Under the pieces are notes generated by a model. It searched no databases and was not told the origin of the DNA. It saw only the letters and a list, made by a program, of their open reading frames with translations. A stretch of 61,065 bases of DNA, filler included, from Dugesia japonica (taxonomy: Eukaryota), in assembly GCA_001938525.1 (NCBI GenBank). It is 6 parts of 6 records of this genome, joined end to end, with 100 filler letters (N's around TTAATTAATTAA, not from the genome) between each part and the next. Parts side by side here need not be neighbours in the genome. Positions count along the whole stretch, not along the records: positions 42,603 to 52,726 come from MQRL01578042.1; 5 more parts are not named here. The stretch is one strand, 5' to 3'. Positions 5,904-56,478 of this stretch are shown one piece after another (position 1 is the stretch's first letter; each line of letters starts with the position of its first letter). The position numbers and the translations under genes were made by a program.

Positions 5904-5965
5904 TGGGATTTAAATTAATTAATTCGATTGATTCGTTAAAAGAAATATTAACAATGTACTAAATT

Positions 5966-7837: not shown

Positions 7838-8765
7838 ATGGTGAAAAATGAGGAACGCTATTCCAGATTAGAAGTCTAGTAAATTCATTGTCAATCTTCA
7901 AAATCCCATTTAAATGGATGGTAGTTGGGAAGAAGCTATGATGGACTTCACCTTTCTATATTCTCCCTTTTCAGTATATAGTAAATCAAAGATTGAACAC
8001 ATGACCGCAAAAGATATATTGAATGAAACAACTGTAAAAATTAATATCAAGGAAAAAACTATTATTGTTGATCAAAATAAAAATATTGAAATATTTGAAA
8101 AGAATTTCATAAGGTTTTATTGTGATTTTCCATATGCTGTCATATATAAAGATGCAAATATCGCACATTCATTTGGATTATGATTTAAATCTAACAAATT
8201 AACAAAAACGTTCTGTCATATCTATACAAACTTTGCAAATGATGACACAGTATAAAAAGTAAAAATTAAAGTAGCTAATACAGTAGTAACTTATCATACT
8301 TTTCAGTTTAAAGAATTGGAACAATTAAGTACATATTTGACAGAAAATTGTATTCAAATATTTAAAAAATGTCTTATAAATGCGGATAAATATGTTGAAT
8401 TTGAGCTAAAGGATGACGTCAAAAAAGTTGTATTTTTTGTTTTGACAAGAACATTGGGATTAGACAAACAACAATATTCTCCTACAGATATAAAAGGAGG
8501 CGAGTTCAAAGCTATTACCAAATCGAAAATAATGAAGTTACATCAGAAAATGTTCATCTTGTTGAGCCTATAATTGTAGGTGATGTTAGTGTAACTTTGA
8601 TGAAATATATATTGATAGAAAAGCATACAACTGATGGAATTGTGCAAATAGTAGTAGAGAATCTAATTTATTTACCTATGGCGACATCATGTAAAACATG
8701 ATACAAGATCAAGTTTCCAAAACCTTCAATAACTCATTAAATTTTACATTTTAAAAAACTAAGTA
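7838..8765 (+). pseudogene. Polinton minor capsid protein (penton/PX)
   Basis: N-terminal FIVNLQNPI*MDGSWEEAMMDFTF and C-terminal VEPIIVGDVSVTLMK..LIYLP..LILHFKK motifs. ORFs 7914-8183 and 8316-8573 are fragments of it. Confidence 0.8.
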
Positions 8766-9178
8766 ATGAATTCTGATATTCCTTCAATGTATAGTACTAG
8801 TCAAGCAGGTGGAGAATCACCTTACTTTTTTGGAAACAGTATGAATCTGGTTGGTTGCCAAAAATAGGTAGATTTGCTTTTCCTTTTCTTAAACGTATCG
8901 GTTCATTTGGTATGAAAACCGTTCAGGATGTACTATCTAATAATGGAAAAATACTGTCAACATTAAAATCTAATGCATTACTTAGTGGAGTAACTACTAT
9001 GATTCCAAAAGTATCAAACATATTACCGCAAAGTATAATTAATAAAACACCCTTAGAAATAACTAATATGCTATCAAATCAAGTTAAAACACAACAAACT
9101 CGTAGAAAACGAAATACATCACTCGCATCACGTATAAACAAACGAATGAGAGGACATGTAACAATATTTGCAAATTGA
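8766..9178 (+). pseudogene. Small basic Polinton protein upstream of the major capsid (PW/cupiennin-like)
   Basis: QAGGESPYFFG..SGWLPKIGRFAFPFLKRIG amphipathic motif with an Arg/Lys-rich tail (TRRKR, NKRMRG). Collinear with copy 2. Confidence 0.7.
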
Positions 9179-9805
9179 TTTGCGGTAAAACTGAATTATG
9201 TATTTTTGATAGACCATCGCCACAAGCTGTAATTGAAAGTGACAGTTTGAAGATGTCTTTCCCATAAATTCGATTTTTAAATAACAAAGCGATTTAAATT
9301 TTTTATAAATAGATCTAAAATAGAATACTTGGATTTGAATGATACTTTATTGTATATTAAAGTGAAGGTGGTTGATAAAACTGGTAAAGATATGGCTGAC
9401 ACTCGTGTTGCAGTTCCAAGTAACTATATTCTAAATACGATTTTTAAGGATGTAATTCTTTCGTTTAATAATTTCAAAATTCAAGGTGGAAATGAATCTT
9501 ATCTTCACAAAACATGAATTTAAACTATAATAAATTATAAAGCTGATATTAAAGATGTCTGCCTTGCAGTAATTTTATATGGAACAGAAGCAGATAGAAA
9601 AAGGTCTATTAAAATATCAAAACAATTGTTTCTTTGCATTTCATTGCAACTCGATTTCATGGATCAACCAAAATATATTATTTCCGGTGTTAATTGCTTT
9701 ACAGTTGCAATTAATGTTGGACATAACCATTGATCATTTTACATAATTCATTTAAAATAAAAGTTTCAATCAAACGTTTTTGTATTTATACTGATATTTG
9801 ATAAC

Positions 9806-9840
9806 AATTCGATATTTCGACCTTGTCTTCGTCAGGAATT
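9806..9840 (-). ncRNA. Minimal type-I hammerhead ribozyme (PLE type)
   Basis: Minus strand reads AAUUC-CUGACGA-A-GAC-AAG-GUC-GAAA-UA-UC-GAAUU: intact core, stem I AAUUC/GAAUU, 3-bp stem II, palindromic AUAU stem III, AUC cleavage triplet. Confidence 0.75.
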
Positions 9841-9867
9841 GACTTTTTTCTCAATTCAAAAAAAGTC

Positions 9868-9902
9868 AATTCCTGACAAAGACAAGGTTGAAATATCGAA
9901 TT
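9868..9902 (+). ncRNA. Degenerate inverted copy of the hammerhead motif
   Basis: AATTCCTGACAAAGACAAGGTTGAAATATCGAATT has two substitutions (G8>A and a stem II C>T) relative to the minus-strand copy. Confidence 0.55.
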
Positions 9903-10483
9903 AATATCAAATATCAATAAAAAAACAAATAATTTTGATCGATGCTTTTATTTTAAATGAATTCCGGTGTTAATGTTCATATTTGGTTGAAGAGATCAAT
10001 TACTTAATTTTATTCTAGTTACATTTCAATGTGTAGAACAAAATAATGGTTCTTATAAAATCTCGAGTTCAATATTTCAAAATCTAGACATTGTTAACAT
10101 TTCCTTGACGAAAAACACTTATTTTCGAGAAATATTTACTCAAGACATTATAAAAGGTAATTACACCACAACATATGTCCAATTTATAGTAAGAAATATG
10201 GGATATTTGGATAAGAATATGAATTGTAAAATAACACTTAGTGATTTTAAGGACAATTATCCCTTCTTGTTCTTGCTCCAGAGTATGATATAAATAGAGT
10301 CAATTGCCTCAATAAGGAAGTTTTAGAATGGATATAAATTAACCAAAGCTTTAACAATATCAGCATGTTATAACTTATGGAGTATTTGAAAATGAAATTC
10401 AGATGAAGCTAACGGAACCGTATTAGTGTAAACACTATGCTGTATAATCGGTATATGTTATGAAGTAGGTGTTATTATATTAA

Positions 10484-10843
10484 TGATTTTTATTTTAATA
10501 GTACTATTCAGATTGATCGGATTTCGTCAAAGTGACTTGGATTGTCATGATTAGGTGTTTATGCTTTAGATAAACTTCTAAATTATATTCCAGTAAATAA
10601 AGCCTTAATTATTAATACCCATACATCAAATCTAGATGGAGCACATTGGATAGCTGTTTACAATAAACCCGCTCAAATACTGATATTTGATTCATTAGCA
10701 TTACATTTTCCGTTAATGTTAGTGTCACGCTTATTAAAATTATCAAAACCGATAGTTCACAATTAAATTCATTATCAAATTCCATTTACAACTACATGTT
10801 GTCAGTACTGTTCATTCTGGTTTAAAAAACAACATTTTACTTG
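10484..10843 (+). pseudogene. Polinton adenain-like cysteine protease
   Basis: GVYALDKL..LIINTHTSNLDGAHWIAV..IFDS..YQ..TTTCCQYC contains the His/Asp/Gln/Cys catalytic motifs. Confidence 0.85.
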
Positions 10844-12268
10844 ACAGATTTATTTTTACTTGTATAAAATAAATGCCTTTTATTGAAAATGAAATCTTTA
10901 TTATTTATTAAAATTAAACTAAGAATGAAAAAGAAAATTATACAAAATAACAACTTTTAATTTATAAAAATGTAGATTTTTTGGGTTTTGTTGATTTTAA
11001 CAATTCGTAGTCTTAGCTATCTTCTGATGCGATTGCAGCGAGTCAGACAGTTTAATAAACATAATCAAAACTATAAATTAATATCTAAAATAAACAAAGT
11101 TTAAATTTACAATGCTTTGTTGTTCTGTTTGTATATAATTTTCAATTGTTGAATTCATACTTTTGTAAAGATGATTTTAAACTAAAAGCATAGGTATTTA
11201 ATGTAATATTAAATACTGCAATGTAATGGTCATTTTATTTATAAAATATTTATAATTATTTTGTGGTTATTTTATTTATTGTTATGTTATTAATGCGTGT
11301 TTTATTATTATTTTGACACGTTTTATTATCAAAAAGACTTTAAAATACTGCAACGTAATATGTCTAAAATATATGATAAAGGTAATTATTTGAATCACGA
11401 TTTCAAATTTATTATACAAATGTAGTGACCATTTCAGGAGAAATTAAAGTAAGTTATTATTATTATTAACTTTTTATTTAGAAATTTGAATACCTATAAA
11501 CAAAATGAAAGACGGTTTATTTCACCAATGAATAACGTAGGTTTGTTATTATTCATTAATTAATTATATAATTTAACATTTAAATAATGGATGGAGGAGT
11601 ACAAGGAGGGGAATGTGGTAGGATGATCTTGAATGCAGATTCACGTTAGTTTTTTTTATTTGTATTTTTTTTAATAGATATATATATTTTTTATAATAAG
11701 TGAAATTTTTTATGTTAAATTTCAATATATTTTCTTTAATAATTAAAAATGTTCTTTACAATTTTCTGTACCATGTTCTATGCTATGTTATTATGAAGAA
11801 ATGCTTTATGCTTTTTATGAAAAATGATCTATGCTTTTATCATTTGGCCGAGAAAAGTTCTTAGCTAATTTATTTCTTATGATAAAAGTTCTATGCTTTT
11901 CATGTTTTATAAAAAAAATGTTATTAATATTATTATTAAAATCATCATGTTATTATTAAAATTATTATTATTTTATTATTAAATTTTAATTAAAATTATT
12001 AGGTCATTATAAAATTATTAAAACTACATCATTATTTACGGACATTGTAAATTATATATAATCCATTCCGCTAATATTAGTCACAATGGTGACTGCCATA
12101 GTATCATGGAAAGGTATTATGGCCTACGTTATTTCTGGAAAAAACTATTTTATATATCATACTTGTAAGGTATCAGGTTTAAGGGACTATTTAAATTTTA
12201 TAGGACTCATAAAAATCACTTGTAAAATTTAAGTATCAGTAAAAAATATATACTAAAATCAATATTAG

Positions 12269-19699: not shown

Positions 19700-20330
19700 T
19701 TAGGCCCACCATTAGTTCTGTCATCTATCAATAAAATATATTAAATAGAATTATACTTGGGAGTCACCCAGAAATTTATCCAACAAAATTTTACGTTGGA
19801 AAATATAATCTTTTAATTCAAGAGGATCATGTTTTAAATTTATTCTGTTGATTTCCTCGTTGGCCGTTGAAATATCGGCCTTGTTCTAGATTTTGTAATG
19901 TATTTATTAATACTTCATAACACTCTTTAACGACCAGCAAATTCTTCTTTAGACTGGGTTCTGCCAATGCTGATTTTGCCTTGTTAACAAGCACACCATA
20001 AACTCCTATATTTGATACAATGTTCTTAATCGCAGGAAGGTTGTTACAGTAGTAAATTACTGCTCGTAACCAGCTTGTCCATCTTGTCAAAACCACTGAC
20101 GGTGGACTTCCAATTTCATAAAATAGATTTTGTTTTTCTTTATTTTTTATTGTTAGCGCTTTTAAACTCCCAATAACTTTATCAATATTTGCATAGGCTG
20201 CACGAATGCGCATAGAACAGTTATGAATTAAATGGGCAAGACATTTTACACATAGAAAATTATGATTTCTTGATTTGTATACTTCAGCAGCCTTTTTCAT
20301 ATAAAATAAGCATCATAAAACTGGAAGTTT
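19700..20330 (-). pseudogene. hAT-like transposase fragment
   Basis: CLAHLIHN (CxxH motif) and PPSVVLTRWTSWL (TRW motif) in ORF 19827-20300. Confidence 0.7.
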
Positions 20331-25519: not shown

Positions 25520-27723
25520 TTACGTATTATAGTATTTAAAAAAAGGCGCGATCTTATTTTGGTGCAAAATTTACTGCATACTCTAAACACGCGTTCTGTA
25601 GACGTAGGTTTAATACAAAGAATTGCGTTTTATAGTTTTTGTAGGTTTTCAGTTCTCTTACTTGTAATTTTGAATAATGTAAATTTCGATTTGAGCCACT
25701 TAAACTCTGATCCTAATCCTGAGAAATGTTCTGATAATTTATCTTTTTGGAGAAACATATTTAATTCATCTTATAATGATAAATTTTCATTTTTGATCAA
25801 TATTCAACGGTTGTTGAGCCGCTTCAGCTATATCAGTAACATCAAAAGGACAAGAGGCAAGATTTTCTGCAAATGTCAGTATGGGTTTTGATTGGGTAAC
25901 AGTTGGATCCTTAAGGCTTCGCAATAACTTCATTACATCTTCATTTATTCTTTCATCTACACGAATTTTTAAATGGTCCATAAGTTTGTTACTAAAGTTA
26001 CTGTTTATGTCAGAAAGTTTCATAAACATAAATTGCAAAATATTTTCGGCGCTTACTAATGTTGTATCTTCGTGACTGAAATTATCGACAACTAATTTTA
26101 CAGATTCCATTGCTCTGTGTAATAGTTTAGGAGCAAAAAAACCAAAATCTTCAATTATGTTTAATGCTTGAAATTTAATTAATGTCTCCCGAATCGCTAT
26201 TTCCGTTTTTATCAGTAGCTCAATCATATTTGGAATAGAATTCCATTGAATTTTAATATCGAAATGCAGTTCTATCTTGTGGCCTATTTCTTCTTTTACT
26301 TTGCCTAGAAACACATTGCGAACCGCAGATTTTTTGATAAAGCTAACAAGTTTCCTTGACTTCTCTATTAGATCGTGATAATAAAGTTCTTGCTCTATTG
26401 CATCATTACTTAAAATTTCTATATTCATTCCATAATCAAATGTGTCAATCTCATTAATATCATCAATTTCATTACTATCCATAATTTGATCATCATCATC
26501 CTCATCCTCTTGAATATTTATTTTATATAATGTATCATATACTCTTAAATGCAAAGCATGATTTAAGAAAAATTATCTGATTATATCCATATGTCATATA
26601 AATATTTTTTATTGACAGCAGCACTGTAAATCCAACAATGTTTTTAGCTAAATTAACTTAAATTTGTATTTTATCATAACAAAAATTCATTTCTAATCAT
26701 CATAACATAAATTTATTTAAATGATAAATTATTTGTATTGAGAAACTTTTTATTTTTGACTTCCAAAAACAGTAAAAATAGTTGGAAATAAAACAGCAGT
26801 TTTACTGTTACTATTTAACAGTTTTGAAAAACCCTAAATAACACACGTTGTATTGATAAATCATATTGCTTTTTATCCTATTCCTGACATGGAATGGATT
26901 TTTTGGTGATACCATGCCTTTGTCAGACAAAGATTTTCGAAAAAATTCAATTTTGGATAAAGCATTTATGGTAAAACTATCCACCATGGCTAGCTTTCAT
27001 ACAATCTCCTCGATAGTTTGCTGTTTAATAAACGTATTGATTTTTCTTGGCACGTTGTCTGTTTCCACTCCAACGTTTTTATGTTCCCGTTTAATTCCAA
27101 ATTCTTTGTGGGCGTTATTTAAATGACGAAGAAGCCCACTTGTGGAAAACCCTTTGCACATTATCTTTTTATTGCACTTTTTGCAAGTGACAGTTTCACT
27201 ATTTTTTCCTTGGTAAAATATTGCCATGTCTTTGATCCTCCACTTACTATCGACATGATTATAATAACGGTTTTTTCATGAAACTAATTTAATCGATTTT
27301 TGATAGCAGTAGTCTAAAGATAATTAAAAAATCGATAAATGAAACACAAATATAATTATAAAACAAATAGACTATTACAAAATGTTCTTACTTACATTTC
27401 GATTTTGATACGTTAAAATGTATACATTTAAACTACAATTATTTCAAATAAATTCAATAAGCTATTAATAACTAACTCGTTTTTCAAAGTTTTAAACTGT
27501 ATTGCACTCTTCACTCTTCTTTATGTTTATGAATAAACTATCTTGCATAATTAAAAAAATTATTTGTCAAATGTAAAAAATTGAATATCAAAATAAAAAA
27601 GGAAAACCCAAAAATTTAAGAAATTAAATTAAACAAAAAAATTGGTTTCCCGGGATATATTCATTATATTCCGGGATATCCCGCTATCAATTTTATCCCC
27701 GGGATCCCGTTTAAGAAACACTA
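25520..27723 (-). mobile_element. Decayed hAT transposon with BED zinc finger, containing a nested small insertion (~26570-26840)
   Basis: TIR TAGTGTTTCTTAAACGGGATCCC. BED finger CKKC..STSGLLRHL..H, then HALHL, DIKIQWNS and C-terminal IKPTSTERVF. Confidence 0.85.
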
Positions 27724-28135: not shown

Positions 28136-28479
28136 TATCATTGGGGTTCAAATCTTGCGGTTCTTTAAGATTCTATTAGAATAGTTATTTAAAGTTTTAT
28201 CAAACATCCAACATTTTGGCAATCAAAATTAAATAGTAATTAAATAAATTATATAGTTAATCAATAACATACAAATTCAAATTATATTGATTTATATATT
28301 TATATAAATTTCCAGACACTAATTTCCGGACAATAATTTCCAGACATTAGTTTATTATAACATCTGATTAAACAAAATATTGTTATTTATTTAAATTGTT
28401 TTTTCTTAGTATTAAAAAAATAAATGAACAATTTTTTATTCTCAATAAAACGCATTTTGTATACAACAAATACATGCAA

Positions 28480-28830
28480 CTAAATTTTCAACTGCAATTA
28501 TGATTTTTTTTAACATAAGACACAGTGTTGTCCACAAGTTGTTTTTAATAGATCTCGATTTCAAATTATGGTTTTGATAAATGTTATACCAATTTTGATG
28601 TATAATATTAAAAAGCAAATGAATCAAATACCACTATTTGAGCAGATCTATTGTAAACAGCTATCCAATGTTCTCCACCTAGATTTGATGTATGAGTATT
28701 GACGATTTAGTATTGATTTACCAGAATATAATTTGGAAGCTTGAGTAATGCATAGACACCTAGCCATGGTGATCTCAGCAATATTGATTCAATTTGATCT
28801 ACCTGAACGGAACTAATAAAATAAAAATTT
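28480..28830 (-). pseudogene. Adenain-like protease, copy 2
   Basis: VNTHTSNLGGEHWIAV..VFDS..TTCGQHC. Confidence 0.8.
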
Positions 28831-28882
28831 CTAATAAAATAACTCTTACTTTATGGCATGTAACGATTATACAACATATTGT

Positions 28883-30100
28883 TTCCACTAATACTGTTCC
28901 GTTGGCTTTAATCTGAATTTCGTTTTCTAATACTCTAGAAATTATAACATTTCGATGATGTTAAAGCTTTGGCAAATTTGATATCCATTCTCAAGTTTCC
29001 TTGCTGAGTTAATTGACTCTGATTTATATTAAAATCAGGAGCGAGAACACATGTAAAGAAGGGATAATTGTCGTTAAAATCACCAAGTGTTATTACATAA
29101 TTCATATTCTTTTTCAAATATCCCATATTTTTAACTATAGATTTTATTTATGTTGTAGGTATTATTATCGTTTGTAAACTCTTGAGGACATACTTCTCAA
29201 TAATCAGTGTTTTTCGTTAAGAAAACAGAACCATCATCTGAATTTTGAAATGCTGAACTATAGCTTTTATAACTACCATTATATTGTTCTCCTTTTTGAA
29301 ATGTAACTAGAATAAAGTTGAGTAATCGACGATCGCCAAATATTTGTTTCTTAAAGAACGATGAACTATCTTTACTAATTGCAAATACAACGAATTTTTT
29401 GGTTCTTATTGGATAAATAGCATTTTGCTTTTTTAGTCCCAACTGATGAGCAGCTAGTACTGAATGTTCAACTCGTATACGTTTAACCATTAATTTGTAT
29501 CTAGTAATACATATCTAGGTACATTAGCTGCAGATTCCAAACAAATCTTAGAAGATGCTCTTTTCAATCGAATATGAACATTGACACATGGAATAAGGTA
29601 TTTCGGTTGATCCATGAAATTGAGTTGCAATGAACTGCATATAAACAATTGTTTTGATATTTTAAAAGACTTTTATCTATCTGCTTCTGTTCCATATTCC
29701 ATTGCTGCAAGACAGATATTTTACTATCAACATTATAATTTATTATAGTTTCAATTATTGCTTTGTGAAGATAAGATCCATCCCCACCTTCAATTTGAAA
29801 TTGTTAAACCAAAAAATTACATCCATAAAAAGTGTATGCAAGATATAGTTTGTAGGTACCGTATCATAAGTTTCAGCCATATCTTTACCTGTATTATCAA
29901 CTACATTCACTTTAATATACAATAAAGTATCATTCACATCTAAATATTTTGTTTGAGATCCAATTATAAAAAACCCTACGTCGCTTGGTTATTCAGAAAT
30001 TGAGTTCATAGGAAAGACTTCTTCAAATGTACCACTTTCAATTACAGCTTGCGGAGATTGTCGATCAAAAGTGCATAACTCAGTTTTACCGCAAATTATT
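28883..30100 (-). pseudogene. Major capsid protein, copy 2
   Basis: ICGKTELCTFDRQSPQAVIES, YLDVNDTLLYIK, VKRIRVEHSVLAAH..AIYPI and QGNLRMDIKFAKAL. Confidence 0.85.
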
Positions 30101-30937
30101 TTTCAAATATTGCTCCATGACTTCTCATTTGTTTGTTTATACACGATGCGACTTATTTTTTACATTTTCTATGAGTTTGTTGTGTTTTGACTTGGTTTAG
30201 TAGCATATTAGTTATTTCAGACTGTATTTTATTTCTTATACTTTGCGGTAGTATGTTTGCTACTTTTGGAATCATACTGGTTACTTCACTAGATAACGAT
30301 GACATAACCTTTCCAAGTTCAGCTAATGCATTAGATTTTAATGTTTGTAGTATTTTTCGATCATAAGCTAGTACATTCTGAGCTGCTTTTAAACCCAATG
30401 AACCAATACGTTTAAGAATAGGTTGTTAGATGAGTTTGAAATACTTATCGGGTCATTAATATCAAACCTCGATTCCATAGCAAAATGTATTCACAAACAA
30501 AACTATAAATATAAATTGGCAAATTTAAAAATTCATATTCAAAAACGGAAAATATCAAATATCAGTATTTTGTAAAATATTTTAAAATTTTTATTAATAT
30601 CAAATTTAAAATTTTATATACATTTCACATAAATATTTTAATACACATTAAAATTTTATATTCTAAATTTCTCATTCACTAGTTGTACAAAATTAAATTT
30701 TAAAAATTTATTTTATAATTTATTTTACTAATACAAATCAAAATACAAATCTGATATTAATCAATTCAGCTTTAAAATACAAACAATTTAAATCTGTTTT
30801 AAAAAACTATCTTATATAGGTAAAACAAATCTACCTATTGTTCGTAACCAACCTGATCAATATTGTTTACCAAGAAAGTAAGGTAATTCTCCACCTGCTT
30901 GACTAGTACTATACAATGATACGATATCAGGATTCAT
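30098..30937 (-). pseudogene. PW-like small basic protein, copy 2, split by a solo-LTR-like insertion
   Basis: Homologous to 8766-9178. ORF 30153-30398 is its C-terminal part. Confidence 0.7.
30424..30816 (+). mobile_element. Solo-LTR-like insertion with 5-bp TSD (TAGGT)
   Basis: Begins TGTTAGATGAG. TAGGT at 30419-30423 and 30817-30821. The homologous site in copy 1 has no insert. Confidence 0.6.
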
Positions 30938-30939
30938 TA

Positions 30940-32400
30940 TTATGTTTTCTAAAATTTAACGCTAAATGCGTTTTTGAGTCTTCAGCAAAATTGCTTAGTT
31001 TTCCCCTATCATCTCGTATATTGATTTCTATATTGTTTATATATGACCAAGAAATAAGTTGGATGCTCAACAATTATTTGAACTACTTCATCATTTTCAT
31101 TTTCTTCTATCAATACTGATTTCAATAAAGGAATATTAACATCACGAACAACAATCGGTTCAACAATACTACAATAGATGAAAATCTTTTATAATTTCTT
31201 AAAAAAGGGATGTTTTTAAAAACAGATTTTATTTTTTGTATTTTGAAACGGAATTTGATGAAATCAGTTTGTTAACTATTTAAATAAGAAAATAAGATTA
31301 AATATATATAATGTATTTTTAAAATGTATATTTTAAAATATAAATAATGTATTTTTAAAAATATGTATAATGTATCAGTTTGTTTAAATATTTAAATAAG
31401 AAAATAAGATAAAATATATATAATGTATTTTTGAATTTGAAATTTAATAAATTATGGATAAATTAAAATAAGATAAAATATATAAAATTTAATAAATTTG
31501 ATATTAGATAAATTTTAAAATGTTTTGCAAATACTGATATTTGATTTTTTCCGTTTTGATATGAAATTTTTAAAATTTGTTTGAAAAAACAAATTTGTAT
31601 GTATAGTTTTTTTAATAGATCTTGTAATGAAATCGAGTTCTGATGTTATAATCTGATGAGTTCTCAAAACTCATCTAACAATCTCGTATATTGATTTCTA
31701 TATTGTTTATATATGGCGAAGAAATAAGTTGGATGCTCAACAATTATTTGAAGTACTTCATCATTTTTATTTTCTTCTATCCATACTGATTTCTATAAAA
31801 GAATATTAAAATCACCAACAACAATCTGTTCAACCATATTACAATAGATGAAAATTTCATTATAACACTTTAATATAGTAAGTTTCTTATTAATTTTATA
31901 TTGTAGTTGTATATATTCGAGTATAATCTGATTCTTTTAATCCTAAGGATTTTGTTCAGATTTTATCGAATTTAAAACTTTAGTTCAACTTGACAATGTA
32001 AATTAAAATAATTCATCTTGATTTAATTTAAAAGTTTTAAATAGTTACATGATTTAAATCCATTATATACAATTCGGGTTCAAATTGAAATTAATGTTTA
32101 GTTACAATCGCATAATAATATTTAATTTTTATTTGTTCAATGGAATCATCATTTTTAAAAATATGAAAGCGAATTGAAAATATTTTATCGTCAAAATTTA
32201 TAATATTATCCGCTCTCACAACTTCCCCTTTAGAATGTGTAAATCTTACCAAGTTTTCCATAATATCAAATGATAAACTGTGGAATTTAATATCACTACT
32301 AAATATTATCATATTTTTCTTTAATGTTATATCTGTTTCCGTATTATTTTTATATTTACCTTGAGAATTAACAGTTAAAGCACTGTTTTTTTGTTATTAA
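30940..32400 (-). pseudogene. Minor capsid protein, copy 2, with insertion and partial duplication
   Basis: IFIYC..VEPIVVxDVNIPLLK..VVEHPTY motif is present twice. Confidence 0.7.
31200..31680 (-). mobile_element. Second copy of the same solo-LTR-like repeat, opposite orientation
   Basis: Ends AAACTCATCTAACA, the reverse complement of the 30424 start. The other end resembles 30780-30815. Confidence 0.55.
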
Positions 32401-42602: not shown

Positions 42603-43050
42603 GCTGCTTCTATTGGTTGATCAATCACATGTCCTTTCTTGGCAATAACTTGAGTCCCATGTTTGATGGTAATTTTCCCGGTGGCAAATCCTTCATCGCA
42701 TTGTTGTCCGGTTAGATGTACAGAATGTCTCACTGTTTCTGGGTCAATGATTGAAGTATAACTGTGATATCCACAATGAAATATGATGTTTTTACCGTTA
42801 CTGTACATTCGCGTACTTGGGCCTTATAGTAATCAGACTCTTGATATAAATGGTAGACGGAATTATTACGGAATGAGATTTTCTCCGGGTTTGCGTCTGG
42901 ACATTCTTCTGTATCCACTAACGAGAATACTTCCTTCCCAACTTGCATTCCATCGCATTCGTATGCTAGTATGGCTTCACTTCTGCCCATCATTAAGAAT
43001 AACAAGAGTATTGTAGTGGTTAACGCTTGCCAGGAGTTTCGACGAGGTCC
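42603..43050 (-). pseudogene. env: Envelope glycoprotein N-terminus, chuvirus (Jingchuvirales)-glycoprotein-like, with internal signal peptide
   Basis: RRNSWQALTTTILLLFLMMGRSEA / ILAYECDG..FSLVDTEECP..HLYQESDY..RECTVTV(K)NIIFHCGYHSYTSII..QQCDEGFATGKI after repairing one frameshift in an A-run at ~42790. Confidence 0.75.
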
Positions 43051-43129
43051 ACGTGTCCATCCATTCTCGATCTCATTTAACTGATCCCGAACAATCCTGA
43101 TTACTCTAGTAGCATTTTCATGAGAGGGC

Positions 43130-43530
43130 TGAGGTTTAGGGCATATTGCCTCAATAAACTTTTCCCATCCCCCATGCTGTTTTATNNNNNNNNNNNNNNN
43201 NNNNNNNNNNNNNNNNNNNNNNNNNNNNNNNNNNNTTTGACGGCTTGCTTCTAGCGATTGTTAGGTGTGTTTGATTAATCAGATGCGCTATGGATACTAC
43301 TATCCTTCCCTTCGTTGGCTGCTCTTGTAATAATTCATCCATTACCCCTTTTAAATTATTTCTTGTACCATGACTGGTGCCTTTAGTGGCGGGAAATTTC
43401 CTAATGGCTGCCTCTATTTCCTTTGCCAATGGCCTAAGACTATCAGATAGCTGAAACTTTCCAATCCATATTTTTAACTCTGGGTATAACATTAATAATA
43501 ATTGCCGTATTACTACTTCGGTTGGCATGT
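43130..43530 (-). CDS. Bcl-2-like domain within ORF2 polyprotein
   Basis: BH3-like LRPLAKEIE, BH1-like VMDELLQEQPTKGRIVVSIAHL, and BH2-like IKQHGGWEKFIE (43150-43185, read in the glycoprotein frame just after the N gap). Confidence 0.7.
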
Positions 43531-44344
43531 CATCATCTGTTGAATTTTCGTGGTATCTTTCTTGTGATACCGTTGCTAGTCGCTTAGTTTGATGGTTTAT
43601 TGATGTGGTTAATCGTTTTTGTTTTAAGGCCTCTGGGTTTTCCGGGGGCTTGGTTCTTGACCGACCTCTATTACGAGGTTCCGTAATTGTTTCCGCATCT
43701 ACTCGGGTGCGTACTGGCTTTGGCAGTATTTCCTCGTCTTCTATTTCTATCGGATTTTCCATCTCTAGTGAGTGGTTTGTATCCATCAAATCATCTATTA
43801 CCGAAGATGGCAATTCTTTTGCTATTCTGCTTAATATTGGTGACAATGGTTGGTCTTCCAATATGTCTTCCTCGTCCAAGTCGACCTTGCTAGGGTCGTA
43901 TTTTTTACTGCGTGCTGGTTCTTTCACCTTGATTTCTTCACTTTTTCTAGTTGGAGGAGAATATTTTGTAATTTGTAAGTCGTCTTTGTCTTCTGCTGAC
44001 TCGTCTGCTGATGGTGATCCAAATATTTCACGTTCCCAATCTTGGCTTGTTTTAGGAGTTTCTTTGGTTTCCCGGGACGCTTCAGTGCTTCCAGATTGAT
44101 CTGTTGTAGGTCTTAATATTTGACTAGCCGCTAGTTGTGTACGGTGTTTATATGCTTTTAACATACCGGATGTCTCTCCCATTATTGGTCTGGTTTTATC
44201 TGCTGCTTTATAGGGATCTNNNNNNNNNNNNNNNNNNNNNNNNNNNNNNNNNNNNNNNNNNNNNNNNNNNNNNNNNNNNNNNNNNNNNNNNNNNNNNNNN
44301 NNNNNNNNNNNNNNNNNNNNNNNNNNNNNNNNNNNNNNNNNNAG

Positions 44345-47300
44345 TTTGTATGGTGGTTTAAATGGCAACTTGTCTCGTAGTTGTTTTACCGTATTATACA
44401 CCGGCATTTTAACCGTGATTTTGTCCCCTTCTGGATCGATTATTCTGAATTTAACTTCCAATGGCGTGGGTTGTCCCATCTCCGCTTTTCTCCATTTAAC
44501 TAGAATTTTACTAAACTGAACTGGATCCCATACATGTGCTACTTTGATAGCTAGTATTAATCGTCGCAATTTTCTAAGATCTTCTACTGCCAAATCTTGT
44601 TGTAAGGCTATATTGTATCGTCGCATGATTTCCGGCTTTATTAACTTATCGCCTACTAGTAATTCGAACAATTTCGGTAAATTGTCTTCTGGTTTTTCAT
44701 CTTTGACCGGGGTGTTGGTCAGAGCTGCTCCCATCTATACTCTTTGATTATTTTGCTCTCGTTTAGAGAGTTTAGCTCTAGCGAATATTAATGGATGTAT
44801 TTCTTCCAGGTAATATTCCACTAACTCCCTAGCTTCCTGCTTCCATTTTTCCTCCGAGACCCGTGGTCGTCGTCTCTTCTCATCCCTTGATGTTAAATAA
44901 ATTTTTAATTTAGTACCTGGCCAAACCCCCATATATTTTACTGGCAATCTCATTTGGTCTGATTCTATTACGTGGCTGTAATAGAGTACTATGTCGTCTT
45001 CCTGAACTGATGTTTGCAATCCAGTTTCCTCCTCGTTAAGGCTACGTTNTTGATTCATAAATTTTACAATCCTCTTCCGCAACTTAGCCCATGGTTCGTT
45101 CATTTGGACCTGCCAACGAATTTCAGTTTCGTCGGGAAATCTGATTGTTACCGTGACGGCTTCGTTGGTTATCATTCAAACTGTGTTATTTAATATTGCA
45201 TCCATTATGTCTTCCGGCATTTAACTTATGGCTCGTAATTGATTTAGCTCTAGAACTAATTCAATGACTTTGTCATGTCTTAATAGTTCCAAGTTTTCTT
45301 CCAAGGTTAAAAGTATTTTCATTATTACTCGCGCCAGACTTCCCCATGTTTTACTGTCTTCCCATAACTCAATATTTATCTGCATTGTTCTGTCATTGAC
45401 TACTTCGAATAACTGTCCACTGTTAATTTCTTGTTCGTATAGTTCCTCTAGTTGTTGTATTACTTCCTCCATAGATTTTACCGGGCCTGGAATGTAATCC
45501 TCTGGTTTCTGTATTTGGAGAAATGTATTTTCTCCGGGTCTTAATCCTACATCCATTAAATGTTGTTTTCCTTCAAACTTTATGGGGAATCTCAGATGAT
45601 CGCTTGTGATTATATAGCTTTTCTGCTGGTCGGCTATATCCAGTGTTTCTATAATTTCTTGTAATTCCCCCGCTGATGTACTGTTAAAATGTGGTATGTG
45701 CATGACAGTCAATTCCGGTTCCTTTCTGGTTTTTTTTGTTTGGTGTCAGATATTTTATCGTGACTTGAAAATCTTCTCCCCTGGCACTTGTTTTCACTGC
45801 ACCAATATACGACTTGATTACTGATTCCTACTTGGCACAATCTTCTCTTGCTATTTCAGTATACTTTGTTAGATACATTAGTAAATTTAATGCTTTCCAA
45901 AATGCTACTCGAGGTATCCTTTCCTTGAAATAACAAAAATCCGAAATTATCTTCGATATCCGCTCTGCCTGCGGCGAACTGAAAGGGCCAGCGAATTCAT
46001 GTTTAAATGGTTACAATCGGGGTTGACCAATATCCTCCGAGATTTCTTCCTCCTGCTCTTCTTCATCTGAGGTTAGGTCTGGTGTGTCATGGTCTTTACT
46101 CCGAACCATGTTTATTTGGGCTTTATTTTCGCCATAAGTGTTTATGAGTCGTTCATTCTCTACCGGTAGTATTTCTTGTAGATATAAGCTCATCATGTTA
46201 AATATGAGTTGATCGGTATCCGGCATTTTCGATATTGGGATGTCTACGGTCATTTTACGCGATGTTAGTTTGATTTCTGTGATCTCCCTTGGCTTGATAT
46301 CATGCAAAAAGATATGGTCCTCTTTCTCGGCTAATATAATCATTGTTGCTCCTGCTTGCATTTTATAGGACTTGAGCGATTTTGGTCATAGCCATTTCTT
46401 GATTGGTTTTATGATATGGTTGATCGTTAGTCCTTCCAGCGTTATCATATCTACCTTTTTTATGCTTCCCTCCTTACTAAGTAGGCTGACTCTGATAGAA
46501 TAGTCGGATATAGTGGATGTATTCTGTACTTCCTCTTCGTANNNNNNNNNNNNNNNNNNNNNNNNNNNNNNNNNNNNNNNNNNNNNNNNNNNNNNATTGC
46601 CAAATCCCGTAAGTTATTCATCATTTTCCAATATACTTTGATATTCACGACTGGTCGCGTTTCTCGTGTTACTCTTAGTAGATCATTGATAGCGTGAAAC
46701 GTGGCGGATTCCTCCGTTATCGGTTTGGTATAATTCATCCGAATATCGCGTATTGTTGGCGTGCCTTCTGGGAATATGACGGATTTTGTAGTAATTATTG
46801 GCAAGTTATCGATATTCTGTATTTTCTGATTCTCTTTTACTTGTTCCTTTATGCCAGTTAATACCTCGGATACGTATAATTCTGTTATCTCTTCCATTCG
46901 CTCCTCGAGATCCGGTGATTGATTCGTCCGTGGCTCCTCGTCTACATCTAACTCACATATTTCTCCGGGCTTTGCGTGGCATTGAAATATGTGTTTGTCC
47001 TCGTCGTTGATCTCAACCAATTTGCCATTTATGAACAGAGGTACCATGTTTAGCCCTAGTTCTCGCCACTTATCGGTAATGGCATCAATTAAATCCATCA
47101 TGGTTATTCCTTGTGGTTTTAACCGACTATATTTAGTCAGTTCCTGTTCATTTTTACCTATATTTAAATATAATTTATAATCCTGAATTTTGGTAGTTGC
47201 CAATATCTCTTCGGCATATTTCTGCCTAATCATGAGCCATTGGTTCTCGATTTCCTCCGGTATTTCTAGTCCATCATATATGTCGTAGATTCTATTCATT

Positions 47301-48047
47301 ATCATCCAATAGGTTTCTCGGGGTAAGTTCTCCTTCTCCATCTGTACTCGGTTAACCATTTCCTCCACTTTACGCATTGCTACTACCTCTCTTGATGGCA
47401 TCTGTTGCATTCTTATCATGTTGCATTTGCCCTCTCTTCTCTCCAATCGCTGCCTGAGGAAGTCGTTAGGCGTCATTAACAACTGTTTCCTCTCTTTCTT
47501 TGTCAGTTTATCTTTCTTCGCGAGTACCGTGGAAAGTATCTTGATTTTAATTGGTAATACTCCTGGTTTATATAGATATTCCATTTCTCCCATGATTTCT
47601 AAAGCTGATCTTCCGGTTTTTGTTATCCAGATGTCATAGTCAATACCGGGGTGTTTGTCCAATACTACGATTTCAATGTCCTCTCCTAGTTTTACTCCAA
47701 AATCGTATAGATGTTTCTTTCGGGCGTTAAAATCTATCATAGCACTTGGAGTGCACACATATGTATCAGTTATGCATGGATAACCTGCTTGATTAAGCGC
47801 CGCCTCTAGATCTTCTACCATTAATCCCGTGAGGGTCAATTTCATGTTACCTTCTGGGCTATATAACCATACTTAGTAATCTGATGATTCCATGTTAGAT
47901 ATTACCCATTCATAATGCACTGGTAACCATTCTGTCCAATCGGGCGTATTCTGGTATTTCCCTTCAGTTTCTATTTCTTCTTGATTCATTTCTAAATGTG
48001 AAACATTGATTAACTTCCCCGTGGTTTTTATCTATATACATATTCAT
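44345..48047 (-). pseudogene. ORF2 polyprotein N-terminal part: six ~230-aa repeats each beginning with a ubiquitin-like (beta-grasp) domain
   Basis: Recurring end motifs KHLYDFGVKLGEDIEIV, KHIFQCHAKPGEICELD, DHIFLHDIKPREITEIK, QHLMDVGLRPGENTFLQ and LPVKYMGVWPGTKLKIY, each followed by an E..ELY..E helix. ORFs 45221-45712, 44735-45175 and 43151-44734 share one frame. Confidence 0.7.
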
Positions 48048-48094
48048 TAAGTAAGTTTACCATTTACACTACTTACAGGTAATTTCTCTTTATT

Positions 48095-49700
48095 TTAAAA
48101 TACCAATATACCCGGTGCCTGGTAGTGTCTAGGCACATACATTGGTAATTCGTGAGGTGCGTTTCCTAGCGGAATTCCCGAATAGTTTGGTGGAGCTAAT
48201 CGTAATTGTCGCTCCCGTTTGCTGCGGTGGTGTTTCTCTTTCTTTGGTTTTGAAACAAGTAGACAAATAATGCTTATTATAAGCACCGTAATAATAATTC
48301 CTCCGATACCTAACGCATAACCTAATTCATAACTTCTTGTTGGTTGAATTGTGGTGGTTCTCATAGATTCTGTAATGGATTTTTCTATTATTTCTATGTG
48401 ATTCCTTCTTGGTTCAAATTTGCTTAAATTTGACATCCAATTGTTCAGAAAATTTGCTCTTTTTTCTTCCTTCTCGCGATTCTGTGTTGTGGTGGTTATC
48501 TGAATTTTGGTAGTATTTGCTAACTTGGGTATGTTTGTGTGTATGGGTATTTTGGTAGTCCCTTTTTGTTTTCCCGTTGCCTTGGTTTTTATTATTATAT
48601 CTTGGTTAATTACCGTGATAAATTCAAATCCCCATAAATCTTTGTCAAATTCTCNAATATTCATCTCTTGATACATTTCCCTTCTCCAATAATCTTTAGT
48701 ATTGAATCTCCATCCCCACTCATCAAGATCCTTGATCGTATGTATTAACAATTGTTCCACCTTCTTCACGAACCGTACATAGTACATACCCTTAATTTTT
48801 TTCACTTGTAAAGAATATGGGCCCGTTGCCAATATGGTTTCCACCCCTTAAATTCTTGATTTANNNNNNNNNNNNNNNNNNNNNNNNNNNNNNNNNNNNN
48901 NNNNNNNNNNNNNTATGGAATGTACTTCTCGGCCCTGAGTGACTGTTATGCTCTTTTGTCCTATTTCTACCCCCTTTTTATTCCATAATTCTGTTTCGTA
49001 TTGCATGCGCTGCCATATAATCGTATGGTACAGGTATTCACTTTTTGGACATATTGTCGTTATTTGTCCTCCGGTATCATTTCGTATCCATTCTTTGTGC
49101 CTGAAGTTATTTTCTACATAATATAATACAGAGTTACTTCCTCGTGATACTTTGAATTCTTTACTTGCTTCGTAAATTAATGGGTTGTTCGGATTTCTCC
49201 ACGTTATGTCCCATACTTTTTCTATCTGCCACTTGTCTATATTGAACCCCAATAATCTTCCTTCCACTGGTTCTTGGCTGAGGAGTTGTATCATAATCCT
49301 TCCTTTTGCTCGGTGTAGTTTAATCATGGTGCTTTTTTGACTTTTTATCACTGGTGTTAAAATTAATTGTCCGTAACCATACATTGCTTGTGTTTTCTGT
49401 TCCCTCTGAAATCCTAAACGACTTATTGTTATGACGTGCATCTTTCCTTCCTTGATGAGTATTCTATGTTCCGTTAAGACTGGTTCATTTACCCAGCATT
49501 CTTGACCTCCGATCCATCTTAGGATCATTATTATAGTGGTTATTATGATTTGTCCACTGGAAATTCCATTCTGAGAAGTTACTTGTACCTGTTGCATTGC
49601 TAAGGTTGGTAACGAAAGTCCTACTAGAATTAACAAAATTAATTAAGTAAACAAAATTAATATGCCATAATACCAACTTGTGTTGATTACCGCCCATAAC
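48095..49700 (-). pseudogene. Type-I membrane glycoprotein at the C-terminus of ORF1 (signal-like segments, ectodomain, Thr-rich stalk, TM helix, PPxY tail)
   Basis: Hydrophobic LILLILVGLSLPTLA and IIITTIIMILRWIGG, sequons NDT/NTT/NLS, stalk TTKIQITTTTQ, TM LGYALGIGGIIITVLIISIICLLV followed by KPKKEK, and PPNY at 48182-48193. Confidence 0.7.
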
Positions 49701-50069
49701 ATCAGGGATGCTTTGACTATTATTTCTTCTGTAATCTCATTCTTGCTTCCTTGTGGTAACTCGTTTTTTGATTTTCTTAGTTTTGATCGATCCACCACAT
49801 CTTGTATCAATGTCATTTTCATTTTTTTCGCCCTTCCAGGCGTTATTCTGACTGATTGTCTCTCTTCTTTTTCCATTCCATCCCCTTGACCGTGAAATGA
49901 TTGTCTCATCAATTTCACTTGTTTTTCCAACCCTTCATTAGGATTCGCGATACTGATTGGTTTCAATTTCCTACAAGCCAATTTGTCTGATCGTATGTCT
50001 AGTAAGGTCATATTTTTTGTTTGTGTTTACTTTGAATAGGTGGTTCGACGATTGGATATCTAACTGTTC

Positions 50070-51390
50070 ATACACTCTAATCCAGTTCCATTGTACTAGC
50101 GTACGGTGAAACACATGTATAGATGTTAGTAATTCTTGACTATAAATATCTGTGCATGGCATGCATAATTATTTTTATAATAAATTGACGAATTGGGGCT
50201 TGAACCGGCATTTTGATTCGAGATCCATCACAGTCTTTCCTTAACCGATTTTCTGGTCTGGATAACCACGCTTTTTGATTGTAAATGGCCTTTAGTGCAT
50301 TTTTAAATATTATCTGTGTTTGTCGGATACATTGTAAACAACTCTCTTCCAATTGCAGTGCTGACAGTGGACAAGTTATTTGGTTAATGTGATTGCAACT
50401 TTCTTTGTATCTTGGTGTCTGGCTCCCCTGGCAAGTGATCGTATAGCATGTAGTGGCATTCATAGCTTCAATTGCCAGAGGTCGACGCATTTGATTATCT
50501 AAACCAAAAGATACGGTTTTAACTTCTTGTGCTATAATGGCTGATTTATCATTAATCATAGATGATGTTATTGGAGTTTGAGAAGTACGAATAATACTTG
50601 GTGTCTTAATTATTTTAGGCATAACCAATTTATTCGAATTATTCAATTTGGTTGTGATTAATGCCATCTTTCCAGTATCCGTGTTTTCGTTGTTGATTTT
50701 ATTATGAAAATCCTGACCTGATGCCCCGCCATCTTTCAGTTTCCTTTCTTTCCTCTGTCTGTCTGCGTATTTTAATACGCCCTCCTTCAATAATCGCGAT
50801 ATTTTTTTCAACTCTGTTTCTATCTTTTCATCTTCTTTTGATTGTAGGTCCGCTTTCTCTTCCGAATTCACATCTTTCTCCGTTAGTTCCCCTTCCCCAT
50901 CTTCTTCAGACTCAGCGTCCTCGCTGAGACGTCTCTTCCTTAATAATGATTCTAGCCCGCTCCATGGTGGAGGGTCAACTGGTTTAGACCATAATACCAA
51001 CCAGTCTCATACTATTAATATCGTGTGGAAGTTCTCAATAGCTCGAGTGAGGGTTTCATTATAAATACTGACACAACGTTCGCATAAGGTGTGTATTTCG
51101 TCTTGTTCCAATGGTACTTGAATTGTTAGCTTGTCATGCATTTTCGCACATCGTTTTCTACTGAGTTTATTTTGTTGTAACAACTCAAGTCTGCGACTAG
51201 CGATTTCCCGCAATGTTGATTTCAAAAATGATTGCAATTTCCATATGCATGCAAGGCAATTTGCCTCGATTAGAGTTGGTGAGATTGGGCATGTCACCTG
51301 AGAGAAGTGCGCACAACAGTTCTCGGGCACTAGTGCCTGCGTTCCTCGTGGAATTATAGGATATATTGCCGTGGTACCCAATGCTTTAAC
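50070..51390 (-). pseudogene. Two copies of an unrecognised ~125-aa Cys-rich domain separated by a charged/low-complexity linker (ORF1 extension)
   Basis: CAHFSQVTCPIS..CLACI..RKRC..LCERCVSIY..FHTILIV*DW aligns with CNHINQITCPLS..CLQCI..RKDC..LCMPCTDIY..FHRTLVQWNW. Confidence 0.75.
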
Positions 51391-51479
51391 TCGCTGGCTT
51401 AATTGACCTAATATGAATACTGGGGTGGATATTTTCCCGAGTATCATTATAGCTTGTTGTGATCGTAATTGGTAACTAT

Positions 51480-52726
51480 TTAACTCCAGATTTTCCGACT
51501 TACGTGGCCTACCTGGCCCTCTATGTTCCGTCGCAGTGGGTGCGGTACTTGTGGATGGCGCAGTTTCATCGCCGCCTTTTTGCATAGGTTGGCGTCGTAT
51601 ATCTTTGGTTTTTCTAATAGGTTCCCTTTCCTTCGAACTTTGAGATTAGTTTCCGTTACTTCACTTACTTCATATGGTCCTTGCCATGGCCTTTTTAGTT
51701 TTGATGTAGTGCCGACACAAATGGCTGGTAAATTGACCAATACCATGTCGCCTTTTTTAAAGGAATGCTGCACTGCTGATTTATCTTGTAAATCTTTATA
51801 ACTCTCCTGGTAAAACCCTACATTCTCCTTGACTTGTTTCCATATTTTCTGCATAGTTTCTTTGAAATTTGCAGCGAAATCTGTTTCGTCTTAGTATTGT
51901 GTTATCAGTGGTTGGAATTCCAAGTCAATGGGCATGTTACACTCTCTGCCGTACATAAGACCAAACGGAGTGTATTTTGTTGCTGGATGTACACTCATAC
52001 GGTAGGCAAATAAACACAGTTGAATATGTTTATCCCAGTTATTTCGTTCCTTTTGAGCGTAACTGGATAACATATTGATCAAGGTTTTATTAAATCGTTC
52101 CATTAATCCATCTGTTTGTGGACGATAAGGTGAGGTTCGTAACTGGTGAATTTTGAGGAAGTTCGATATTTCTACTAATATGTTGCTCATAAAGTTCTTC
52201 CCTTGATAGGTCAATATTTTCTTTGGTGTGCCATATCTGCTGAAAAATTTTCGTACCAGAATATCTGCTATGTAGTCGCTTTTTGATTTTTCATAGGGAA
52301 TGCCTCTGGGAATTTCGACAAGTAATCCATGATTGTTAGTATGTAGATGTTTCCACTCAGCGTTGGTGGTAACGGTCCAACTACGTCTATGGCTATTATT
52401 TCCATAGGTGCGGCGGGGACGGCTATTGGTTTTAATAATGCTTTCACGCGTTTACCAGTTCCTCTTCTGGCAAAACATATTTGACATTCGGCGATCCATT
52501 CCTTCACTGTCTCTGTCATGTGGGGCCAGTAATACTTCTGTCTTAATTTTGACTCGATTTTCTTATGGGACATGTGTCCTCCTAGTGCTCCGTTGTGATA
52601 TTGCTCGAGTAATTTATCTCGTCTTGCTTTAGGAATGACTAATACAGTATTTTCAGCCATCCTTTAGTGACTGCATAACGCCCTCCGTTTTTCTTTAAGT
52701 GTTCTTTCATCTTGGGTTCGCATTCT
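51480..52726 (-). pseudogene. pol: Ty3/gypsy integrase (HHCC, D,D35E, GPY/F) followed by an AT-hook
   Basis: HNGALGGH..YYWP..CQIC, IAIDVVGP, LTYQGKNF (second Asp mutated), YRPQTDGLMERFN, KLKRPWQGPYEV, and RGPGRPRK at 51499-51522. Confidence 0.95.
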
Positions 52727-55936: not shown

Positions 55937-55974
55937 CCATATGCGAGACATAAATAAAAATATACAACTTTTAG

Positions 55975-56300
55975 TTTGAACCAGAGTTATCTCCTGTCTT
56001 ACGACATGATAAATATGGTCTTTTATACATAAATATGTTCACATCATTAAAACTTAGACTATATACTTAGACTTTATCATTTTAATTTGAAAGGATATGT
56101 GGATAACATTACTTCGAATTTATTCAATTTAATTGAAAAAAATTTAGAAAATTTGCTAAACAGATGCAATACAAATACATCTCAAGTACAAATAATATCA
56201 ATTTAAATTTTGATATTTAATTTTCAAATAATTAAATATATTACGTTGTGGTTTGTTAATATGCACATATGATATATTGCATTTCATTATTCATATTTTT
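55975..56300 (+). pseudogene. TBP-like gene 3' half and downstream region (copy 3)
   Basis: FEPELSPVLRHDKYGLLYINMFTS plus ~300 bp colinear with the reverse complement of 5290-5595 (shared ATAACATTACTTC, AATATCAATTTAAATTT and TATTACGTTGTGGT). Confidence 0.75.
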
Positions 56301-56478
56301 TAAAGAAATTTAATAAGCGTTTTTGGCTTTTATCCAAATGTTTACAAATACAGATTATGTTAATGCAGAAATAATCAGTTAATATATAGTCAATATTTAT
56401 GTATGTACATATATCATTTGGGATATTTAGAAATGTAAATTAAATTATATTTTTTTAATTAATTAATATAAAATTATA

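Follow-up and report, generated by a model that had tools for sequence, protein, structure and literature searches.

Probable tandem expansion of a helix-bundle and predicted ubiquitin-like module in a decayed, envelope-carrying gypsy retrotransposon of Dugesia japonica

Results

A repeat array in the second open reading frame of a gypsy element

The stretch of Dugesia japonica DNA analyzed here (61,065 nucleotides (nt), assembly GCA_001938525.1; hereafter the window) contains, on the minus strand of positions 42603-52726 (MQRL01578042.1), one decayed copy of a gypsy retrotransposon that has a high copy number and an envelope gene. The second open reading frame of this copy (ORF2, ATG at 47989) encodes an array of five full units and one truncated head (unit 6, cut by an N gap), which is very probably the tandem expansion of a module composed of a helix bundle and a predicted ubiquitin-like (UBL) domain. 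We propose, tentatively, that in the active element the array was non-conjugatable and engaged proteins of the host ubiquitin/SUMO pathway as a multivalent adaptor or decoy; taken as a whole, expansion with an adaptor role is the explanation that we favor, by a cautious judgment. The six-fold expansion to diverged units, the paired bundle and the gene order are new, whereas the domain type is known in the clade.

A preliminary description of this DNA had reported six repeats of about 230 residues, spaced roughly 600-740 bp apart. All the peptides that it quoted were found on the minus strand where it had placed them, and the repeats proved real, albeit as five full units and one truncated head in a broken frame. 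The first strands of heads 1-6 start at about 47881, 47182, 46505, 45776, 45160 and 44458, in good agreement with that description, giving spacings of 699, 677, 729, 616 and 702 nt, of which the second spans an N gap of unknown size.

Pairwise local alignments scored against 500 shuffles related units 2 and 3 (z 9.4), 1 and 3 (7.8), 4 and 5 (4.6), 1 and 4 (4.3), 2 and 4 (4.3), 3 and 4 (3.2), and 1 and 2 (2.6). The scores of unit 5 with units 1, 2 and 3, and of every pair with unit 6, were non-significant, and a control pair, unit 4 and the membrane protein of the element, also gave z 3.7 in this test. In leave-one-out profiles built from the window units only, the real score was reached by none of 500 shuffles for units 1, 2 and 3, by one for unit 4, by 17 for unit 5 and by 132 for unit 6, and five control proteins of the element scored at most 3.8 bits. 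The internal repeat signal, which the preliminary description had put forward as a check, was therefore significant for units 1-4. Unit 6 was recovered (0/500 shuffles) only when the modules of related elements (see below) were added to the profile, and in this mixed profile units 2 (114/500) and 3 (454/500) lost significance. The units are 13-24% identical to each other over head and helix with no DNA-level match between them, indicating that the duplications are old. Judged from these comparisons, units 1-4 are clear paralogues, unit 5 is a weak one and unit 6 is a head only.

Head 1 (47657..47884) is a paralogue of heads 2-4 and has a stop in its first strand. Bundle 1 (47201..47398), which matches the module of the relatives, lies past a conserved E..Y helix and a linker and is followed by the intact head 2 (46940..47182). 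Bundle 2 (46598..46750), placed by alignment, is cut by an N gap. Head 3 (46256..46505) has one stop, as does bundle 3 (45790..45992), which lies past an acidic linker and was placed by alignment with bundle 1. Head 4 (45506..45776) is split by a frame break near 45731, and bundle 4 (45176..45349), with two stops, was assigned by position. Head 5 (44888..45163) is the most diverged and has an insertion. Bundle 5 (44477..44692) is intact and collinear with the relatives, and the first half of head 6 (44345..44458; two strands and a helix) ends at an N gap. All are on the minus strand. The array has seven stops (47875, 46388, 46013, 45830, 45223, 45178 and 44737), the frame break in head 4 and two N gaps (46542-46595 and 44220-44342), and this copy is thus dead. 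Head charge ranges from acidic (unit 1) to basic (units 3 and 6), and hydropathy analysis found no hydrophobic segment in the array.

Predicted folds of the heads and bundles

The heads modelled for a beta-grasp fold were head 2 and, in part, head 6 (its first half). The AlphaFold2 (AF2) model of head 2, produced with four other units as the alignment, was of low confidence (pLDDT 50, pTM 0.29), and its topology, strand-strand-helix-strand-strand-short helix-strand, is the ubiquitin order. All 46 rows listed by Foldseek for this model were of the ubiquitin type, judged by title or known identity (best E 6e-3), with Nip45 SLD2 in the top row, tied with others. A wide VIA search gave Z 5.5-6.6, where values below 8 may reflect a common arrangement, and a root mean square deviation (rmsd) of about 3 Å over 67-85 residues; 46 of its 50 rows were beta-grasp by title or known identity, and those at ranks 21, 29, 36 and 42 were unclassable from their titles. 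Midnolin, PUX5-UBX and Ddi2 were among the VIA rows, tied, and no subfamily was picked out. Rad60-SLD and ubiquitin clusters in the Atlas scored 0.85-0.87 (Rad60-SLD 0.87), which we treat as a lead only. By sequence, head 5 had weak SUMO rows in the PDB (E 0.24 and 0.76) and a UCH_UBL1 match at E 0.12. The best PDB row for the profile of the window heads, an RNA polymerase subunit (E 0.067), was taken as chance, and no UBL was found in that search. Together, the model and its fold matches indicated that the heads probably have a beta-grasp fold.

As the preliminary description had noted, there is no C-terminal di-Gly: Gly-Gly was absent in or just past all five complete heads, which makes conjugation or cleavage in the manner of ubiquitin impossible for these heads. 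Its characterization of the heads as old, diverged, integral UBL domains in a long terminal repeat (LTR) element is supported by the low identity, the fold matches and the lack of di-Gly, the beta-grasp fold being a prediction.

The AF2 model of bundle 5, with the relatives as alignment, had a pLDDT of about 80 over the first three helices and 72 overall; it places two strands and a further helix behind a set of four helices. Foldseek searches with the bundle 5 model returned nothing below E 0.2, and nothing below E 0.1 among viral structures (best E 0.14). When the top 1000 Foldseek matches were re-aligned by VIA, 15 of 50 rows were TFIIS-N domains (TNDs; Z 5.2-6.0), tied with exportin/HEAT; these included LEDGF, human and yeast TFIIS and PPP1R10, one row being classed by residue numbers. 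In the wide VIA search, TPR/HEAT solenoids led (Z 8.1, 7.3 and 7.0) and TNDs accounted for three of 50 rows, with a best Z of 6.5 (Elongin-A and MED26). All of these bundle Z values are below the noise level of the tool for helical bundles. No TND match to the bundle was found by sequence, and TNDs have five helices, whereas four were modelled in bundle 5. As modelled, the bundle is a small alpha-solenoid interaction bundle of a generic two-hairpin type, and a TFIIS-N (LEDGF-IBD-like) identity is possible.

Two other candidates were rejected. A BCL2-like helical half in every unit was not supported by the helices of units 4 and 1 (z 1.4 and 1.8, respectively, against the BCL2-like segment of the relative P0007), and the four-helix model of bundle 5 had no BCL2 row among the matches listed, an absence that is not decisive. 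Epac2 REM-RA also matched (profile E 0.011; Foldseek E 0.25, rmsd 15), which was put down to its having helices ahead of a beta-grasp and not to its being the origin of the module.

Relatives and origin of the module

Homologues of units 1-2 were not found by word search among proteins of 745-2125 aa, by phmmer on 1.84 billion representatives, or in metagenome and viral contigs. Relatives were instead found by an integrase-core search of long proteins, which gave 16 matches among 113 candidates. Ten of these are Burro-type polyproteins (P0001-P0010, from ENA/JGI/Logan/MGnify records), nine of which have the same env family upstream of pol. Reading and alignment placed a helix-bundle and UBL module between gag and env once in six of them and twice in P0007, which also has a BCL2-like segment; P0004 and P0010 start too late to show whether it is present. 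In the relatives, gag and the module are part of one chain, with the gag zinc knuckle immediately ahead of the module. A profile of the relatives' module found nothing among proteins of 283-2000 aa. Its sequence matches were to ubiquitin, ISG15 and an IQUB domain (best single-domain E 5.8e-5), which indicates that the second half of the module is a UBL. In addition, one of seven relatives matched PF11976 (Rad60-SLD) at E 0.015.

Two parts of the array aligned with the module of the relatives: bundle 5 with head 6 (hhalign P 0.001) and bundle 1 with head 2 (hhalign P 0.002; pairwise z 5.9 to P0006 and 4.4 to P0008). The link suggested by these alignments is modest. A common origin is further supported by the position before env, the collinear alignment and a second element in the window that has one module. 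This second Burro-type element (700-4100, plus strand) is far more decayed and has the standard order, with the module at about 1897-2399 (independent E 1e-7), env pieces at 3671-4082 (PF24664 E 1.5e-6), and gag-like and zinc-knuckle remnants, seen by eye, such that the module is between gag and env.

Since the relatives have a bundle and then a UBL, this was the order of the ancestral unit, of which the array is very probably an expansion. The preliminary description had each unit begin with the head; the helices that it placed after the head are present, but the ancestral register is the reverse, and it had overlooked the separate bundle preceding each UBL in the relatives, as well as the BCL2-like and env domains. 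The window integrase forms a long branch outside the groups of P0001-P0010. Other cargo observed in the relatives comprised ankyrin repeats past the integrase (P0004, 1154-1368) and C2H2 zinc fingers between env and protease (P0006, 1403-1497; P0009, 1292-1315).

Copies, selection and assembly

In DNA run X1, 17,212 contigs fell on the element, most at 90-99% identity, indicating that the family is abundant. The summed depth of contigs varied along the element, and is no measure of copy number. Of 17 sites varying among copies at the start of ORF2 and in head 1, 15 were third codon positions (binomial p 4e-6), compared with five of 13 sites private to this copy and two of four in an in-between class. 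This count covered 47600-47989 and used 34 in-frame sites among 40 of 66 variable rows; it scores codon position and not synonymy, its sites are non-independent and it concerns head 1 only. Across the family, head 1 has been maintained by purifying selection; the decay of this particular copy was neutral.

The spacer between the membrane-protein gene and ORF2 was bridged by five of the 32 contigs listed (runs X1, X2 and X4), each differing from the window at 12-30 places and one extending well into both genes. Bridging by such diverged contigs indicated that the unusual gene order is common to other copies. The gaps past head 6 and before env were each spanned by single contigs. One X1 contig (depth 63) joins 43118 and 49849, skipping 6.7 kb, and corresponds to a deleted derivative in which membrane protein, array and BCL2-like domain are all missing. 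RNA reads, of which 5-22% of each run was covered, comprised 34 partial matches, mostly below 90% identity, in X10 and none in X13 or X9, and are neutral on expression.

Gene order of the element

The window is AT-rich, with ATT microsatellites and scaffold gaps, and the 10.1 kb of the element are GC-richer with coding on the minus strand. The limits of this fragment are scaffold gaps at 42602 and 52727, and there are five N gaps within it. The minus-strand order is gypsy integrase, Cys-rich extension, membrane protein, a spacer of about 105 nt and then ORF2. Within ORF2 the repeats precede an acidic linker, and a BCL2-like and a signal segment lead up to a gB-type fusion glycoprotein, of which the start is present.

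The integrase zinc-binding domain and the start of the core (52271..52726; Pfam Integrase_H2C2 E 9.5e-19) have one stop followed by a frame break, and the core and C-terminal domain (51483..52268; Pfam rve E 0.016) have one further stop. This integrase is 44-52% identical to those of P0001-P0010. The Cys-rich extension (50143..51645), read from the translation, was without a significant Pfam match; the relatives differ in having a second protease-like domain at this place. The membrane protein (48095..50026) has a signal/hydrophobic segment, an ectodomain, a transmembrane helix and a tail, with hydropathy peaks of 2.8 at 49666 and 2.9 at 48310, and ends the pol-side frame. No Pfam family was found for it, and a membrane protein also follows the integrase in P0001-P0009, as the C-terminus of their polyproteins.

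The first ATG and short leader of ORF2 (47885..47989) begin about 105 nt past the membrane-protein stop, and neither an LTR nor a clear polypurine tract was found in this spacer. Beyond the array is an acidic, probably disordered linker (43532..44218), with a low-complexity linker at the same place in the relatives. The putative BCL2-like helical domain (43140..43531) is divided by a 50-N gap and was assigned by its BH1/BH2/BH3-like look, judged by eye, and by z 4.2 to the segment at the same position in P0007. The last part (42640..43030), with a signal segment and the N-terminus of a fusion glycoprotein of the gB type (Monjiviricetes; PF24664 E 1.6e-8), is cut by the scaffold gap, and matched the env of nine relatives at E 1e-10 to 1e-20. 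In this fragment env is not between gag and pol in a single frame: the integrase and membrane protein are followed by a stop, and then by the array, the BCL2-like domain and env. This inverts the arrangement of the nine relatives that have env, all of which are GAG-ENV-POL. The fragment, with gaps at both ends, may show the complete layout of the family or a tandem form from which LTR and gag were lost. A cassette of array, BCL2-like domain and env downstream of the integrase, and not upstream of pol, within a gap-bounded fragment is new.

Other features of the window

Two diverged (70-80%) copies of one repeat are present in opposite orientation at 8559-10964 (plus strand) and 28369-31166 (minus strand). 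The ORF at 8801-9178, without a Pfam match, looks like a Polinton/adenovirus core-protein gene. An intronless ORF at 5526-5909 (minus strand) has a weak TATA-binding-protein match (Pfam TBP E 0.003); the DNA of 5285-5603 has an inverted 75% copy at 55966-56301, and this TBP-like ORF may be repeat-borne. Two minus-strand ORFs (19827-20312 and 25787-26572), also without a Pfam match, look like hAT-type transposase fragments.

Discussion

A possible role of the array

From the fold, the varying copy number and the host-directed cargo that Burro elements carry, we infer the following mechanism. ORF2 would be made as one chain, from the array through the acidic linker, BCL2-like domain and signal segment to env. 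Lacking any hydrophobic segment, the array would remain cytosolic with respect to the env signal, either tethered or freed through cleavage by the protease of the element. Each UBL would offer a docking face to a ubiquitin/SUMO reader or enzyme, with a second partner held by the neighboring bundle; having diverged to 13-24% identity, the units may have had different partners. Acting with the BCL2-like domain, the array would protect the products or expression of the element and keep the host cell alive. With zero to six copies depending on the lineage, maintenance by selection and divergence within an array, the module looks like the trace of an arms race against the ubiquitin/SUMO system of the host, and these small, soluble domains would provide a handle for finding the host pathway targeted by these elements.

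Several observations weigh against this explanation. The model of head 2 is of low confidence, none of its Foldseek E values is below 0.001 and its VIA scores fall in the range that may reflect a common arrangement, and the window heads have no significant sequence match in Pfam or the PDB (best E 0.07-0.24). The link to the relatives is weakened by one of eight reversed-sequence controls reaching P 0.006, by the P of 0.044 for A3 versus A2, by the failure of the relatives' profile to match head 1, head 3 or the tail of head 4 on their own, and by a z of only 2.1 for the P0007 tandem against units 1-2. The module was not seen in P0005, and hence is not essential to every lineage. The selection count has the limits given above, and the identity of the BCL2-like segment is unsupported by any library (no match in Pfam, the PDB or the Atlas).

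The ubiquitin fold could instead be a mere scaffold, with the units binding the element's own Gag, RNA or env tail as folded spacers or in particle assembly, much as the Ubl1 domain of coronavirus nsp3 binds nucleocapsid. Such a structural role would fit the location of the module behind the gag zinc knuckle in the relatives, the varying head charge and the lack of conservation at the column matched to ubiquitin Ile44. We consider it unlikely, as there are zero to six copies across lineages, the window array is not behind gag and the neighboring cargo in the clade is host-directed. It is also conceivable that the bundle captures a restriction factor and the UBL hands it over to the proteasome or p97, in the manner of UBL-UBA, midnolin, Ddi1 and UBX shuttles. 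Weak Pfam UBX matches in two of seven relatives (best E 3e-4) and in P0007, covering the first strands only, would agree with a degradation adaptor, as would the presence of midnolin, PUX5-UBX and Ddi2 among the tied VIA rows and the Phe at the Ile44 column of head 2. However, that column is aliphatic in only one of seven relatives, the tied rows pick out no subfamily, and the Phe-Pro-Arg loop, the p97-binding motif of UBX domains, is absent from the heads as read by eye. The non-conserved column and the absent loop make delivery to the proteasome or p97 less likely, and we regard a degradation adaptor as improbable. The preliminary description had suggested decoys or adaptors as well as proteasome/p97 recruitment, and the latter appears to be the weaker half of that suggestion.

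More improbable still is a chromatin or transcription adaptor in which the bundle, as a TND, reads elongation-factor motifs or tethers integrase while a SUMO-like head engages silencing factors. The TND rows of both VIA searches point in this direction, and there is a precedent in the tethering of lentiviral integrase by the TND of LEDGF, as far as it is described in PMC9987994. TPR/HEAT solenoids rank higher, though, with all Z values below the helical-bundle noise; moreover, the bundle has four helices and not five, sequence matches are lacking and the array is in the env-side ORF. A related and rather improbable extension would combine the cassette behind pol with six TND-like bundle/SUMO-like units in a multivalent counter-silencing and integration-targeting device, which would dock on the host SUMO machinery and transcription-elongation factors, with the element's own domains replacing the lentiviral borrowing of LEDGF. 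Pestivirus polyproteins carry ubiquitin inserts as processing signals, and tandem UBLs within a polyprotein could likewise each show deubiquitinases or SUMO proteases of the host where to cut. With Gly-Gly at the end of none of the five window heads, and held by one of eight head segments of the relatives, where it is not terminal, we consider this very improbable. Equally hard to credit is an artefact, that is, chance look-alikes or a mis-assembly of pieces of different elements. The five internal N gaps and the weakness of units 5 and 6 on their own would be in keeping with one, whereas the repeat statistics, the codon-position bias in head 1, the bridging of the spacer by five contigs from three runs and the single contigs across other gaps all argue against it.

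Comparison with known systems

No UBL array in an LTR element was found in the literature searched, with Grohme 2018 and Lee 2026, and thus possible Burro-2/3/4 layouts, outside that search. The statement in the preliminary description that no such array was known holds, within that search, for a six-unit array, but a single domain has been published for the giant gypsy-like planarian element Burro1 (PMC6431247, Arkhipova and Yushenova 2019). As far as that account describes it, Burro1 carries ubiquitination and apoptosis domains, with a Ubi2/SUMO-like motif (PF11976) between MATH and BCL-2 and an in-frame env. Burro1/GYPSM1 resembles the window element in its gypsy integrase, the succession of a Ubi/SUMO-like motif, a BCL2-like domain (putative in the window element) and a mononegavirus-like env, and its high copy number. 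It differs in having one SUMO-like motif, with no helix bundle described in that account, where the window has five and a half units with bundles, and in having env between gag and pol, not downstream of the integrase. The MATH, BIR and ankyrin domains of Burro1 were not seen in the 10 kb of the window element. BURRO1 is described as under PIWI control (PMC8532177), and its IAP has been reported, second-hand, to affect stem-cell survival protectively (PMC13465017, citing Lee 2026).

The gB-type errantiviruses of flatworms have been classed as GAG-ENV-POL (PMC13524379, Chary and Hayashi 2026). On the information in that source, these HSV/gB-type Platyhelminthes elements are similar to the window element in having a gB-type env on a Ty3/gypsy pol, and the window env start resembles, by eye, six S. 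mediterranea C1a env rows given there. The words ubiquitin, SUMO and Bcl do not occur in its main text, and its POL-ENV search, as described, had a gap limit of 1 kb, such that the 8.5-kb distance from integrase to env would escape. The integrase-then-env order indicates that GAG-ENV-POL does not hold for every gB-type element of flatworms and that this layout would be missed by current surveys.

The Burro-type polyproteins P0001-P0010 share with the window element the integrase, the env family, a bundle and UBL before env and the membrane protein past the integrase, but they have the module once or twice, within one gag-env-pol chain, in contrast to the six-unit array in a separate ORF. Tandem beta-grasp domains are also found in the Rad60/Nip45 SLDs, ISG15, OASL and FAT10, integral tandem UBL proteins of cells that are among the fold and profile matches. 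ISG15 and FAT10 are conjugated through di-Gly. In all of these proteins two domains are joined directly, and none alternates with a helix bundle as the units of the window array do.

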